A stretch of 33,742 nt of DNA from a bacterium (GTDB lineage Bacteria; RUG730), in the NCBI GenBank assembly GCA_031551405.1, contig JAVBNQ010000005.1, positions 1 through 33,742 of the forward strand. Direction: 5' to 3'. The notes beneath the pieces are model-generated. The model ran no database searches. It saw nothing but the letters and a program-made list of their open reading frames with translations, and was not told the origin of the DNA. Shown piece by piece: positions 25,827 to 29,851 of this stretch (positions within the stretch are counted from its first letter, which is position 1; each line of letters begins with the position of its first letter). Position numbers and translations under genes: made by a program.

Positions 25827-27551
25827 TCAATCTTCGAATTGAATGCTGTAAAGCTTTGCATAAAGCCCACTCAGATCCAGAAGCTCATCGTGTGTTCCAG
25901 TTTCTTTTATGCTTCCATTTTCTATCACAAAAATTCTGTCAGCTTTTTTTATCGTTGAGAGTCTGTGCGCAACAATAAAAGTTGTGCGGTTTTTTATGAG
26001 CTTATCTAATGCTTCTTGCACAAAACGCTCAGACTCGCTATCCAGAGACGACGTCGCTTCGTCCAAAATTAAAATTCGCGGATCTCGAAGAAGCGCTCTT
26101 GCTATCGCGATTCTTTGTTTTTGCCCGCCGGACAATTTCGAGCCGTCCTCACCGATAATCGAATCATACGTGCTCGGCATTTTTGATACAAATTCATCGA
26201 CGTAAGCGGCTTTTGCTGCTTCGATTATATCGTCATAATTTTTATCCAGATTTCCATAATGGATGTTATTCGCAATCGTGTCATTAAAAAGCGTTATGTC
26301 CTGCGTCACAATTGCTATTTTTTGTCGCAGCGATTTTATATCAAATTCTTTCAAATTTTCGCCATCAATAAAAATTTCACCTTCAGTCGGATCAAAAAAT
26401 CTCGGAATCAAGTTCATTATCGTGGTTTTGCCGCCACCCGATGGACCGACGAATGCGACTACTTCGCCTTTTTTTACCTCAAAATTCATGTTATTAAGGG
26501 CAAATTCGTTTGAATTTTCGTACTTAAAATAAACGTTTTTAAATAAAATATTTTCTTTTATATCGACCAACTTTTTATCGCGGTCTTCTTCCGGAATCAT
26601 GATTTCGGCATCCAAAATCGTAAAAAAACGTTTGCTGGCAGAAATGGATTGCTGCAGCGTGTTATTAAAATTCGCCAGACTTTTAATCGGAGTGTACAGC
26701 GAAATAATCGCCGCAATAAATGCAAAAAAATCTCCTTGCGTTAAAGTCCCGCGAGCAACCTGGTATCCGCCAATCCCTATTATCGCCGCAACTCCGATAG
26801 ACCCAATAAATTCCATCATCGGAGAAGTCATTGAAATCACTCGATTTGTTCGCATACTGATATTAAAAAATTTTTGGTTTTCTTTTAAAAATATTTGTTT
26901 CCTTATTTTTTCCAGTAAAAACGCTTTTATAACCTTAATTCCCGATATATTTTCTAGTAAAAAGTTATAAATTTTTCCCATCTGTTTTTGGGTTTGCTTA
27001 CTAACGGAACGTAATTTTTTTGCAAACATAAAAAGCGGATACATTGCCAGCGGAAACACAAAAAGCGCAATAAACGCAAGCTTCCAATTCAGAGAAAACG
27101 CCAGGACAATTAGCGAAATTAAAGTCACGGCATCTTTGATCGCATTTGCAGGCAAATTTGTGACTGACATTTGGATTACAGACACATCATTTGTAATTTT
27201 TGCCATCAATTTTCCGGTCGAATTCGCGCCATAAAAATTCAACGACAAATCGCAAAGTTTCTCTACGACTTGTTGTCTCAAATCAAAAACAATTTTTTGA
27301 CCAATATACGACATCAAATAAGCTTGAATGTATGTAAAAACGCACTTTAAAAACGTGACGAGAATTATCACTCCGCTTATCGGGAGAATCATACTTACGC
27401 GTTTGTTTACGAAAATCTCGTTCAAAACCGGCTTGATTAGCCACATTGTGAGAGATGTCAAAAGCCCGACAAATGTCATAAAAATCAACGCGCTAATAAA
27501 TCGCGTTTTGTACGGTTTTATGTAGGTAATAAGCCTCTTGTATGTCGTCAT
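25827..27551 (-). CDS. msbA: Lipid A export ABC transporter (MsbA-like)
   Basis: Six-TM domain plus GPSGGGKTT, LSGGQKQRIAIARA, ILDEATSSLD, AHRLSTI. Confidence 0.88.
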   Translation of the reverse strand: MTTYKRLITYIKPYKTRFISALIFMTFVGLLTSLTMWLIKPVLNEIFVNKRVSMILPISGVIILVTFLKCVFTYIQAYLMSYIGQKIVFDLRQQVVEKLCDLSLNFYGANSTGKLMAKITNDVSVIQMSVTNLPANAIKDAVTLISLIVLAFSLNWKLAFIALFVFPLAMYPLFMFAKKLRSVSKQTQKQMGKIYNFLLENISGIKVIKAFLLEKIRKQIFLKENQKFFNISMRTNRVISMTSPMMEFIGSIGVAAIIGIGGYQVARGTLTQGDFFAFIAAIISLYTPIKSLANFNNTLQQSISASKRFFTILDAEIMIPEEDRDKKLVDIKENILFKNVYFKYENSNEFALNNMNFEVKKGEVVAFVGPSGGGKTTIMNLIPRFFDPTEGEIFIDGENLKEFDIKSLRQKIAIVTQDITLFNDTIANNIHYGNLDKNYDDIIEAAKAAYVDEFVSKMPSTYDSIIGEDGSKLSGGQKQRIAIARALLRDPRILILDEATSSLDSESERFVQEALDKLIKNRTTFIVAHRLSTIKKADRIFVIENGSIKETGTHDELLDLSGLYAKLYSIQFED

Positions 27552-27800
27552 GAAAACTCCAATTTCAAATATTTTTATTTTAGAAAAAAATGTTTTTGGA
27601 AAAATTTAGGGCTGACACCTAATATTTAATTTTCTGAATTTTGTACGCTAAAGAAAATTCTCTCGTTTTTTTGTACAAAAATCCATTTTCCCGTATCAAG
27701 TCCACACATTTTTAGGCACAAAATATTGCACGCGGCGTTCTTTTTTCTCGAAAAACCAACTCCAAAGCCGCAGGTTTTTCGAGCTTTTCCTAGGCTTTTC

Positions 27801-27845
27801 CTCGCAGAACTCGCTTCACTCCGTTTCGCTCATACAAGCTGCGAG
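27801..27845 (-). repeat. Hairpin enclosing a TGTATGAGC...GCGAGTT motif
   Basis: CTCGCAG 27801-27807 pairs with CTGCGAG 27839-27845; the minus strand reads CTTGTATGAGCGAAACGGAGTGAAGCGAGTT. Confidence 0.7.
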
Positions 27846-28028
27846 CAAGGATTCTTTACTTCTCACCCCCGCCAGTTCTTCTGCCCCTTCCTAAAGTCTT
27901 CTCGTCTAGCTTTTAAATTCTTTCAAACGTTTTTCTTTAAAACTCTTGTTTTAATTTTCTCAGTCTCGCGAGTTCGTGATGTTTTTAGTTTCTGTTTTTT
28001 CTCTAAAAATTGTGCAATTTTTAAAAAA

Positions 28029-28214
28029 CCCTTCGTGAGTGAAAGTGAGTAAAATTTTTTAAAAATCGTTTGAAATTTCTAAACTTGTTTGAGCCCCTTT
28101 TTGGGCTGCGAGTCTCTTTAGAAATTTAGATTTTTAGAAAATTTTAGTCCTATATCACGAGCGTGGGCGCCGTTTTTTTGGTACTTTTTTATGGGCGAGC
28201 AAAAAAAGTACCAA
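28029..28214 (+). other. Long nested hairpin plus pseudoknot-capable stem-loop; structured RNA or non-autonomous repeat element
   Basis: Stems 28033-38/28155-60, 28050-67/28129-46 (one G.U), 28073-83/28117-27, apical AGCCC/GGGCT; then the 13-bp stem 28178-90/28202-14. Confidence 0.75.
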
Positions 28215-28486
28215 CTAATAATTTGATAAGCTTTTGTTAAAAACAAGATGACCGTCTTCAGGGTTTAAACTGAAAATTGAAAAGTTTTTTTCTTCTCTTT
28301 TTAAATCGCAACAACAAAACCAAAATCCTATCATTTTTTTACTTCGACAAAACTTTTTTATTTTACAGTCCACACATCAGGATTTTCATTTTTTCTGAGC
28401 GCGGCGTTCTTTTATCTTTCTTTTTTTACATTGCTGTACAGCCTACAGACATATAAATAAGAGAAAAAAGACGGGAATTGAACAAA

Positions 28487-29851
28487 TCAAATTTCAAATT
28501 TTATTGCTCTTTCAGCTGCGATTTTAAAAATCTCCCCGACAGTCGGATGAGAAAAATTTATTTTTGCAACTTGAAAAGCTGTAAGTTTTTGCGAAAATAT
28601 AAAACTCGACAAATTGCTAAACTCGCTCGAGATATTTCCAATTGAGCTAATGCCTAAAATTTGTTTTGTAATTTTTAAAAAATTTATGAGCAAAAAACCT
28701 TTTTGATTATTTTCAGCAACCGCTTTACCAACTTCTGCAAAATTCACTTTTACTTGCAAAACCTCCGAATTTCCGAACTTATTTTCAACTTCAGCTTTTG
28801 TGAAACCTGCTCGTGAAATCTCCGGATGCGTAAAAATTGCCGTCGGAATTAAGCTGTAATCGATTTCTATTTTTTCACCGCGCAATCTTCTTGCTAAATT
28901 CTCCGCGTCATAATAGCCTTTGTGAGCAAGCTGAGGCCCTTTTGCTATGTCTCCGATAATAAAAACGTTTTCCGTAAGCCCAAAATTCTCGACGCTGTCA
29001 ACTTTCAAATTCTCTGGCAAAATTCCGATATTTTCCAATCCAATATCCTCAAAATTTCGTTTTCTCCCAAGACACAAAATCCCCAAATCAAAAAGCATTT
29101 TCTCGTCGCCAAAACTTACCTCAAGTTTGTCTTCGTAATTTTGCAAATTTACATCAGTGTTCAAAAAAATCTTCACGCCTTTGCTTTTCAGCTCGAGCTC
29201 GATTTGCTGCGAAATTTCAGGTTCTTCAGACAAAAGTAAACGCTGCATTTTTTCAAAAATCGTTACATTTACACCTAGATCCGCAAGACTCGACGCATAT
29301 TCGCAACCAATAACTCCGCCGCCGATAAGCGCTACATTTTCCGGTAATTTTTCCAGCTCCCAAAACGTTTGACTCGTCTTCAAATTCGTAATATTTTGCC
29401 AAACACTTGGAACCATCGGCTCAGTGCCTATAGCAAGAACGATATTTTTGTATTCGATCTCCAATTTTTCTACGCTAGAATGTATAGAAATAGTGTTTTG
29501 ATTTTTTATTTTTGCCAGGCCTTTGAAAACAGGAATTTCGCTATTTTTAAGACTATTTTCCAAACCCTTTTTTAACTTTAAAACAACGTTTTTTTGAAAT
29601 TTTTTGAATTCAGAATAATCAAAACACACATCTCTAGCCGTTATGCCAAATCTCGACAGATGAGATATCTCAGAAAATTTATTGGCTGCAGAGACAAGCG
29701 CTTTTGTCGGTATACAGCCGGAACTAAGACAAACTCCGCCTATCTCGTTTTTTTCAATTATACACACCTTTTTGCCTAACTCTCGAAGTTTCAATGCCAC
29801 CTCAGAACCACTCGGCCCTCCACCGATTACAACAAAATCAAATTCCTGCAT
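28487..29851 (-). CDS. lpdA: Dihydrolipoyl dehydrogenase
   Basis: IGGGPSG, GGVCLSSGCIPTKAL redox disulfide, IGGGVIGCE, GDI..GPQLAH, HPTVGE. Confidence 0.88.
   Translation of the reverse strand: MQEFDFVVIGGGPSGSEVALKLRELGKKVCIIEKNEIGGVCLSSGCIPTKALVSAANKFSEISHLSRFGITARDVCFDYSEFKKFQKNVVLKLKKGLENSLKNSEIPVFKGLAKIKNQNTISIHSSVEKLEIEYKNIVLAIGTEPMVPSVWQNITNLKTSQTFWELEKLPENVALIGGGVIGCEYASSLADLGVNVTIFEKMQRLLLSEEPEISQQIELELKSKGVKIFLNTDVNLQNYEDKLEVSFGDEKMLFDLGILCLGRKRNFEDIGLENIGILPENLKVDSVENFGLTENVFIIGDIAKGPQLAHKGYYDAENLARRLRGEKIEIDYSLIPTAIFTHPEISRAGFTKAEVENKFGNSEVLQVKVNFAEVGKAVAENNQKGFLLINFLKITKQILGISSIGNISSEFSNLSSFIFSQKLTAFQVAKINFSHPTVGEIFKIAAERAIKFEI

Follow-up and report, generated by a model that had tools for sequence, protein, structure and literature searches.

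What kind of genetic element is the strongly folding segment that lies between two genes in a small elusimicrobial genome: a structured RNA, a transcript end, a protein site in duplex DNA, or a dispersed repeat? The segment (28029..28214) occurs in contig JAVBNQ010000005.1 of assembly GCA_031551405.1, of which we analyzed a window of 33,742 nt, and it sits in a gene-free spacer of 935 nt (27552..28486) delimited by two minus-strand genes according to open reading frames (ORFs) and Pfam. Our analysis reveals that it is one of about 25 copies of a non-coding repeat in this genome (G000; Elusimicrobiota, 1.21 Mb, 14 contigs, 35% G+C, 100% complete by marker genes), and that its core is common to Elusimicrobiota, Bacteroidota, Clostridia, Ralstonia and other bacteria, with a distribution that is both patchy and wide. 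The multiple copies, their modularity, the core shared across phyla, the covariation of the helices and a mirror relation in the 3' tail are direct observations. The reading we favor, at somewhat less than even chances, is that of a REP/REPIN/BIME-like repeat, non-autonomous and spread horizontally, that is multiplied or maintained via a folded single strand, most likely of DNA. In the window the element is built as follows:

28004..28023, plus strand: small 5' hairpin TAAAAATT / AATTTTTA (RNAfold of copies).
28029..28168, plus strand: long imperfect hairpin of 140 nt with nested helices, from CCC (28029-28031) to GGG (28165-28167) (sequence and folding).
28051-28067 / 28129-28145, plus strand: helix of 17-18 bp with a single non-Watson-Crick pair, T28059.G28137.
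28073..28082, plus strand: 5' strand AAATTTCTAA of P1, the 10-bp helix under the conserved loop (model R1, alignment A5).
28086..28113, plus strand: conserved core, comprising TGTTTGAG, a variable apical hairpin (AGCCC 28092-28096 / GGGCT 28103-28107) and GCGAGT (exact pattern matches).
28118..28127, plus strand: 3' strand TTAGAAATTT of P1 (model R1, alignment A5).
28168..28171, plus strand: CGCC, 5' partner of a possible pseudoknot (sequence).
28172..28179, plus strand: pyrimidine linker L1 (G + T7; T tract 28173-28179), which mirrors the T-rich arm and is a candidate third strand (sequence).
28178..28190, plus strand: T-rich 5' arm TTGGTACTTTTTT of the 13-bp 3' stem-loop (sequence and folding).
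28191..28201, plus strand: loop ATGGGCGAGCA, whose GGCG (28194-28197) is complementary to CGCC 28168-28171 (sequence).
28202..28214, plus strand: A-rich 3' arm AAAAAAGTACCAA of the 3' stem-loop (sequence and folding).

A sequence-only reading of the window had described the long hairpin, the CGCC, the T tract, the 13-bp stem and its GGCG-containing loop, and all of them are found exactly where it had placed them. Folding against shuffles also turned out in its favor: the plus strand of 28020-28225 folds to -67.5 kcal/mol, compared with a mean of -39.1 (sd 3.9) for 200 dinucleotide shuffles, none of which is as low (z -7.2). The minus strand reaches -53.0 kcal/mol (z -5.7). The hairpin structure is well beyond chance.

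Further copies, on whose existence that reading had staked its claim, are abundant. In G000, the 206-nt stretch gives 24 BLAST matches; nhmmer gives 26, 44 and 57 matches in three successive rounds, 24 of them full length; and the core pattern TGTTTGAGCC-N3-24-GCGAGT has 25 exact matches (18 forward, 7 reverse), compared with none for the reversed control pattern. The spacer that contains the element is itself a mosaic of dispersed repeat modules, with 95 BLAST pieces elsewhere in the genome and recurrent break points, and throughout the genome such modules occur in varying order and orientation within spacers. Repeats cover 34.9 kb of the 96.9 kb in the 217 spacers of at least 150 nt (a count that rests on rough ORF calls), and the mosaic repeats make up about 3% of the genome. 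Nearly all contigs of G000 end in mosaic repeats (C1, C2, C3, C4, C6, C8, C9, C10 and C14, for example, at both ends); thus the repeats set the assembly breaks and the true copy numbers exceed the counts given here.

When 22 of the 24 full-length copies are aligned (the remaining two lie outside the fetched loci), three kinds of left arm, at least five self-complementary apical stems and three kinds of tail can be told apart, and they are recombined among the copies. The arms of the long hairpin differ among these sub-families yet remain complementary (GTCTGC...GCAGAC in place of CCC...GGG, for instance), and the small 5' hairpin is kept in other copies as TTGC/GCAA or TTAC/GTAA. Recombinant copies without outer stems are weaker by about 15-20 kcal/mol. 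An ORF of the spacer (27726-28052, plus strand; 108 aa, TTG start) overlaps a pyrimidine-rich repeat module, has no Pfam match and is most likely no gene; a coding role was rejected on this ground and because the apical inserts vary by non-multiples of three.

Among 40 relatives, BLAST with the element matched only G001, which belongs to another genus of the same family and keeps the outer stem through a double change (GTCCGC/GCGGAC). The element of G001, in turn, has 20 matches in its own genome, 13 in G002 (same family, other genera), 2 in G003 at the E-value limit (8.6e-4) and none in G004. A pattern made of the core and the start of the 3' stem was then scanned against one genome per species, with about one chance match expected under uniform composition. 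It returned seven loci, from the following genomes (MAG, metagenome-assembled genome):

Crocinitomicaceae MAG: 3 loci.
Chitinophagaceae MAG: 3 tandem copies.
Another Bacteroidota MAG.
[Clostridium] fimetarium DSM 9179.
Syntrophaceae MAG.

The same pattern found 16 loci in metagenomes, of which one (L077) is a chance match within a gene, and none in viral contigs. At the non-coding loci the core always tops a long hairpin that lies outside the pattern, with folding energies of -50 to -132 kcal/mol and, at one C. fimetarium locus, -195 kcal/mol. The Bacteroidota units also have the tail (CTAGC, T tracts and the loop GGGGCAATG), which the pattern does not demand. These scans bear out a tie that the sequence-only reading had suggested, between TGTTTGAGC..GCGAGT and TTTGGT(T)ACTTT...AAAGT units in other bacteria. 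The neighbors of the element in other genomes are unrelated housekeeping genes, none of them constant. Some loci have features of their own. In the Chitinophagaceae MAG (L058, JBEISB010000008.1 4294-5572) three whole units stand in tandem at a spacing of 298-338 nt with no ORF between them. C. fimetarium DSM 9179, a cultured carrier, has 3 copies. At one of its loci (L079, G044:C10) the right arm and apex are partly duplicated, and a tandem array of ~100-nt units (GCTAGATTCCTCTGTCGCCTCCCGGGAGGGAGTGGC...) on the reverse strand, at ~960-1230, lies directly upstream of the giant hairpin.

From 14 seed sequences we built a covariance model, R1, with 64 positions and 13 pairs, and searched 151 genomes, one per family, with it. 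It matches 9 of them, with 29 matches in G000, 16 in G077, 9 in G096, 6 in the complete 5.0-Mb genome G075 and 4 in G002, and single matches in G010, G081, G131 and G132, all with E-values of 0.002-0.009 by a rough calibration; the other 142 genomes have none. The G096 matches listed are 63-69% G+C. Against plasmids, the G075 unit gives weak BLAST matches (E 0.02-0.08) to 122 records from Ralstonia, 7 from Burkholderia and 1 from Variovorax, and the unit of one relative gives none. The unit is plainly recognizable on a megaplasmid of Ralstonia wenshanensis, with 12 exact cores, six per strand, compared with 2 for the control; there, as in the nine genomes matched by R1, the core again sits on top of long hairpins, and inverted core pairs 200-550 nt apart are found in the neighborhoods of 3 of the 12 cores. 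BLAST with the Ralstonia unit gave no match in E. coli genomes and one marginal phage match. In the R. wenshanensis copies (L143-L155, p56D2) the tail is followed by another small hairpin, the third of the unit, CCCC-GGCA-GGGG, which covaries between copies (TCCC/GGGA, GCCC/GGGT) and is followed by an A/C-rich stretch.

The part that is conserved across these lineages consists of the 10-bp stem P1, the loop CUGUNUGAG, a variable hairpin, the loop CGAGUU and the stem again. The two loop strands form an asymmetric internal loop near the apex (C-UGUNUGAG on the 5' side, CGAGUU on the 3' side) that closes the variable mini-hairpin; tolerated variants include UGUUUGAG, UGUCUGAG and UGUAUGAG. In an alignment of 73 matches (68 distinct) fitted to R1, 92.2% of 847 cells are standard pairs compared with 69.9% in shuffles, and only 26-55% remain paired when the partner is slid by one to three columns; the fit favors the structure, a bias that the slid controls share. 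All ten P1 pairs change on both sides (192 cells), with 91.9% of cells paired in alignment A5, and the covariation score is reached by none of 500 shuffles. The apical stems vary in length and sequence and are always self-complementary. Their loops are mostly C-GAA-G, C-GCA-G or C-GTA-G, and the whole apex in Ralstonia is GCGAAGC or GCGCAGC. Triloops of this C-GNA-G type are a hallmark of very stable DNA mini-hairpins.

An invariant loop within helices that covary across phyla may also belong to an RNA. A small structured RNA family, possibly carried on a mobile repeat, could show the tandem-G.A loop to a conserved cellular partner, while the tail would protect the 3' end in the manner of an ENE element or bind a ligand as SAM-II-type pseudoknots do. 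We regard this as possible, at well below even chances. The Ralstonia copies, in which blocks of the unit are invariant and the arms differ mainly by compensated transitions, fit such a family; the apical triloops are unusual for RNA hairpins. The strand preference of the fold speaks for RNA within G000 and is neutral in the core helix. In particular, 20 of the 22 aligned G000 copies are more stable on the plus strand, by -6.5 kcal/mol on average, and G.U pairs number 108 on plus compared with 59 on minus, an asymmetry to which the T- and G-rich composition of the plus strand may add. In the core helix across phyla, G.U and A.C are balanced (24 vs 20), and the folding strand is not indicated. 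The earlier argument for a plus-strand molecule, from a mismatch in the 18-bp stem that is a wobble pair on plus (T28059.G28137) and A.C on minus, thus stands for the window copy and for 20 of 22 genome copies and fails for the core helix.

The tail keeps the same order in all lineages that have it: an upstream segment a, the pyrimidine linker L1, a pyrimidine arm b, a loop and the purine arm b'. An automated tail finder returned no pyrimidine/purine (Y/R) hairpin for 13 of 34 tails (among them all three of type A, including the window copy, the Chitinophagaceae and most of type B), and the pairs there were read by eye. L1 is the parallel complement of b', with its single C/G position included. 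Examples are UUUCUUUU with AAAGAAAA in G075; UUUUCUUUU with AAAAGAAAA and UUUCUUUUU with AAAGAAAAA in G000 type C; UUUUUUCUUUUU with AAAAAAGAAAAA in G010; UUUUCUUU with AAAAGAAA in G002; and UUUCUUU with AAAGAAA in G081 and Ralstonia. Where the tracts are not self-mirror, the parallel reading is longer by one to two positions in eight tails (by eye), five of which come from G075 and so are not independent. A scripted comparison of parallel with antiparallel readings gave 12 vs 11 in G010, 8 vs 7 in G002, ties where it had picked a different fold, and 5 vs 6 in two T-only type-B tails. Ralstonia copies with one extra residue have it in L1, b and b' together, and the lengths of the three-strand tracts are 3+1+3 vs 3+1+4 in Ralstonia, 4 vs 5 A in G075, 4+1+4 vs 3+1+5 in G000, 6+1+5 in G010 and 4+1+3 in G002. 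As far as sequence can tell, this mirror relation matches the code that T.A-T / C+.G-C triples would follow within a single strand, and L1 is predicted to be able to occupy the A-rich arm as its third strand. The window copy, being T-only, fits the triple code and is uninformative by itself.

The ITxF definition of an intrastrand triplex, as given in Holder et al. 2015 (PMC4666352), consists of three blocks of 6-15 nt, loops of 1-6 nt and at most one mismatch. A third block that is the parallel complement of the purine block is present as runs of 7-12 nt in G081, G010, G002, G075 (five copies), G000 type C and Ralstonia; the loop of the tail hairpin, at 5-11 nt, goes above the ITxF limit.

A site in double-stranded DNA could also account for some of this. 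Such a site would be read by a nucleoid or replication protein, or would adopt H-DNA under supercoiling, with the hairpin potential as a by-product. The invariant core sequence is what such a site would show, and the pyrimidine mirror repeat of the tail is the classical H-DNA substrate. We nonetheless consider it quite improbable: the arms and apical stems change yet keep pairing, which is not required of a duplex site, and the purine arm is on the same strand as both pyrimidine tracts, an arrangement that is intrastrand and not that of H-DNA. The constraints on pairing and on the strand-specific triple code make sense solely for a folded single strand.

The loop of the tail hairpin is, in some lineages, complementary to segment a. 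In G000 the versions are CGCC/GGCG in type A and CGTC/GACG in type C, with CGTCC/GGACG in one copy; in G075 they are CTGTCC/GGACAG, GCTGG/CCAGC and TGCTC/GAGCA, plus two 4-bp cases; G081 has GGCTGG/CCAGCC and the Chitinophagaceae MAG, by eye, CTTGAT/ATCAAG. Altogether seven different complementary versions occur, and loop shuffles reach 6 bp in 3-4% of cases, 5 bp in 9-14% and 4 bp in 9-44%. The 4-bp CGCC/GGCG of the window is equaled by 264 of 500 shuffles. No such pairing was found in type B of G000, its commonest sub-family (loop GGGCAATG), or in G002, G010, Ralstonia and Crocinitomicaceae. The covariation that the sequence-only reading had demanded of its pseudoknot is seen in types A and C of G000, in G075, in G081 and in the Chitinophagaceae and is missing from the other groups; the pseudoknot would therefore be a lineage-limited addition, supported for the group and not for the window copy alone. 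This covariation counts in favor of an RNA. The loop between a' and b', at 1-3 nt, would probably be short for a classical coaxial pseudoknot with a helix of 4-6 bp, which counts against one.

The position of the element relative to genes bears on whether it is transcribed. Of the 24 copies, seven are at contig ends and 17 have a known gene on either side: 13 of these gene pairs are co-directional, four convergent and none divergent. Such a bias, together with the A run and T run that bracket the hairpin, is what one would expect of a cis-acting transcript-end element, as has been proposed for REP, ERIC, BOX and Correia repeats, in which the hairpin and tail, once co-transcribed with neighboring genes, would act as a terminator or as a barrier to 3' exonucleases. 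The unit is, however, antisense to its flanks in 10 of the 13 co-directional cases (sense in 3), and the mRNA would in those 10 carry the weaker complementary strand. The antisense placement suits an independent plus-strand RNA, which would then need its own promoter. No promoter-like site before the unit was found in our scan, and a terminator scan of 27400-28650 gave sites only at 27966-27979, 28397-28409 and 28547-28535, with none at the hairpin or tail; a role as intrinsic terminator or promoter was rejected on these scans.

One DNA run (X1) and one metatranscriptome run (X2), both from invertebrate gut, contain the locus as contigs. In X2, RNA-library contigs cover 28014-28145 and 28106-28426, and a contig of 28397-29300 that overlaps the latter reaches the upstream gene. 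Coverage of the unit would fit an RNA, and the extension from the upstream gene into the spacer, through the overlapping contig as far as 28106, would fit a transcript end. Neither strand nor ends nor level can be read from these contigs, which in depth follow the DNA run. The bins 27556-27723 and 27892-27975 have no RNA contig in X2, and a second RNA library (X3) has next to nothing at the locus. A transcript end would leave the invariant apical loop and the mirror linker unexplained, and we hold it to be unlikely. Both the transcript-end element and the duplex site explain less than a folded single strand of DNA or RNA does.

Searches for a known RNA family were uniformly negative on the element. 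In Rfam 15, the best hit in 27400-28700 scored 25.3 bits against a threshold of 49, so the cmscan check that had been suggested for the locus yielded no family, and 13 loci from other phyla gave nothing on the element. The one hit among these loci was a cobalamin riboswitch in a metagenome contig (L069, 1406-1578; 69.7 bits), about 180 nt from the hairpin and probably unrelated. Also atypical of a cellular RNA gene is the occurrence itself, with up to 25 copies in 1.2 Mb, many of them truncated or recombined, and matches in only 9 of 151 genomes.

A repeat acting through a folded single strand is suggested because the units are multi-copy, modular and often truncated, have spread patchily across phyla and onto megaplasmids without a constant neighbor, and obey the pairing and triple-code constraints. 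DNA is favored over RNA because of the triloops, the very long near-perfect arms (up to 100 nt), the inverted core pairs and the lack of promoter signals. In such a repeat the arms of the long hairpin would be free to vary as long as pairing holds, and the invariant asymmetric internal loop at the apex would be the site read by a trans-acting protein. The tail, whose linker would form T.A-T / C+.G-C triples by lying in the Y/R helix's major groove, would provide a second structural signal, and in some lineages its loop would pair just upstream in a pseudoknot topology. The active form would be single-stranded DNA exposed at replication or transposition. In the reduced genome G000 the repeat would have been amplified to at least 25 copies and would persist without a recognizable mobilizing enzyme. 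The single-stranded DNA, the protein partner and the mobility are what we infer.

Several observations weigh against this favored reading. No cognate enzyme is in sight: Y1_Tnp, RVT_1 and the TnpB zinc-ribbon have no match in the assembled G000, which is complete by marker genes although its contigs end in repeats, and the sole transposase-like trace is a 100-aa open frame with part of an rve integrase core (G000:C4:37281-37424, minus strand). RAYT-like homologs occur in 5 of the 9 genomes with the element and in 64 of the 142 without it, and so do not track it. Unlike those of MITEs (miniature inverted-repeat transposable elements), the conserved parts are the apex and the tail; the arms pair, and in Ralstonia the unit lacks sharp ends and any evident target duplication. 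The element is also present within metatranscriptome-library contigs, and the balance of G.U and A.C in the core helix is neutral. The plus strand of the element lies on the C-rich (lagging-strand) sequence in 18 cases vs 10, including up to three possible chance matches to a relaxed pattern, which is opposite to the prediction of the IS608 model for the active strand and too weak to use. Finally, the compensated transitions and invariant blocks of the Ralstonia copies are explained no less well by purifying selection on old copies, as among structured RNAs that are paralogs, than by recent transposition.

RAYT was examined as the cognate enzyme and rejected. Y1_Tnp is found in five of five multi-copy genomes tested and also in 6 of 14 controls, and homologs in 69 of the 151 genomes show no enrichment. 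G075 does have a 324-aa protein that combines RAYT with DnaA_C, encoded in a cassette with GGGGTCAG-type inverted ends that lies within the apical stem of a half element (L125, G075:C1:4952783-4956115, 807-2040). The second RAYT gene of G075 has no element nearby, and the RAYT-like cassettes of G077 (L126, L129) are flanked by other inverted repeats; we read the G075 case as a single insertion and not a partnership. The fusion genes of RAYT and a DnaA carboxy-terminal helix-turn-helix (L125, L126, L129) encode 322-324 aa in cassettes of ~1.15 kb with inverted ends GGGGTCAG. No insertion sequence bearing the element ends was found.

The element belongs to a known kind, the structured dispersed intergenic repeats, and these are usually regarded as lineage-specific. 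Like BIME/REP in E. coli, NIME in Neisseria and BOX in pneumococci, it occupies gene-free spacers made of a few modules in varying order and orientation, with hairpin units and inverted pairs. The units of those families are 35-60 nt long and, to our knowledge, confined to a genus or family, whereas here the unit is ~190 nt and its core and tail are cross-phylum. The layout of the tail resembles that of the SAM-II riboswitch, telomerase RNA and ENE, in which a pyrimidine linker lies parallel to the purine strand of an A-U helix and a second helix forms from the hairpin loop. It differs from these in having no Rfam match, a helix of 13-16 bp and a pseudoknot helix that is absent in many members. 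The core resembles that of the hammerhead ribozyme in a stem extended by tandem G.A, with CUG...GA on one side and GA... on the other. A hammerhead was rejected on alignment A5, as the core has two helices instead of three and differs at invariant positions: its 5' strand has an extra residue and is without the invariant A, its 3' strand is GAGU instead of GAAA, and there is no cleavage-site strand. Inspection also led to the rejection of a k-turn, for which the tandem G.A pairs are present but the helix beyond the bulge cannot form, and of an attC site, since the conserved part is the apex and not the foot.

With REP/REPIN-RAYT systems, the element shares multi-copy extragenic palindromes, inverted doublets, compensated stems and, likely, a logic of single-strand recognition. 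REP/REPIN units are short G+C-rich palindromes (PMC3733652) with a GTAG or CGTC tag; the element has no such constant tag, combines a 140-nt hairpin with a tail, and conserves the apex and not the foot. In addition, G000 has no Y1 gene and RAYT-like genes are unassociated across the 151 genomes. The intrastrand triplex motifs PIT, TMECO and BoxC (PMC4666352) likewise have three successive same-strand blocks and are triplex-capable, abundant, dispersed and conserved, and A/T-rich motifs are there reported to be common in some genomes. TMECO, according to the same paper, is G/C-rich, of the purine motif, ~40 nt long and stand-alone, whereas the tail described here is of the T.A-T / C+.G-C type, is always attached to a long hairpin with a conserved core of its own, and in part has loop-to-upstream pairing. 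MITEs, which according to PMC10969869 have conserved ends and a known parent insertion sequence, are similarly short, non-coding, multi-copy and hairpin-forming, and the inverted pairs of Ralstonia resemble long terminal repeats; in the element it is the apex and tail that stay constant, and we found neither a parent element nor a target duplication.

The remaining features of the window concern the rest of the spacer and its flanks:

25827-27551, minus strand: ABC transporter gene (ORF and Pfam), one flank of the spacer.
27801..27845, minus strand: second, divergent core copy in another module of the spacer, CTCGCAG / C TTGTATGAG / 15-nt loop / CGAGTT / CTGCGAG (regular expression and folding).
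28487-29851, minus strand: pyridine-nucleotide disulphide oxidoreductase gene (ORF and Pfam), the other flank.

The module that carries the minus-strand core has eight sister copies with R1 scores of 28-31 bits. The spacer also contains, at 27700-27745 and 28369-28413, two copies of another module, GTCCACACAT ... GCGCGGCGTTCTTTT, in the same orientation; it is reversed beside other copies of the element (C1:43414, C5:75777). Its second copy in the spacer includes the weak terminator-like site at 28397-28409. In the DNA run X1, one contig links 28145 to 28435 on opposite strands, which suggests either that some members of the population have modules in inverted arrangement or that the contig was mis-joined at repeats.

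We found no published description of the unit by sequence strings or under Endomicrobium repeats, intrastrand triplexes and Ralstonia MITEs; as far as searched, with supplements and subscription literature outside this coverage, the cross-phylum core, the triplex-capable tail and the fixed geometry, in which an 8/5-nt loop tops a 10-bp helix, are undescribed. It is conceivable, although we would not call it probable, that the unit represents a new class of horizontally spread, structured single-stranded nucleic acid that ranges from Elusimicrobiota to Betaproteobacteria, with an invariant tandem-G.A loop as a handle for a partner and a Y.R-Y triple-helix 3' tail that is sometimes locked by a pseudoknot. 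If this is true and the molecule is RNA, a mobile repeat would be carrying a bacterial counterpart of triple-helix-stabilized RNAs; in the case of DNA, the unit would be a hairpin-plus-triplex transposon end of a new kind whose enzyme is not identified. The 14-nt loop, the helix geometry and the triplex-capable tail are kept from a termite-gut symbiont in the Elusimicrobiota to freshwater Bacteroidota, a Clostridium isolate and Ralstonia megaplasmids. The finding thus bears on how non-autonomous repeats spread without a visible enzyme, on the biological use of intrastrand triplexes in bacteria, and on the effects of repeat mosaics on reduced genomes.

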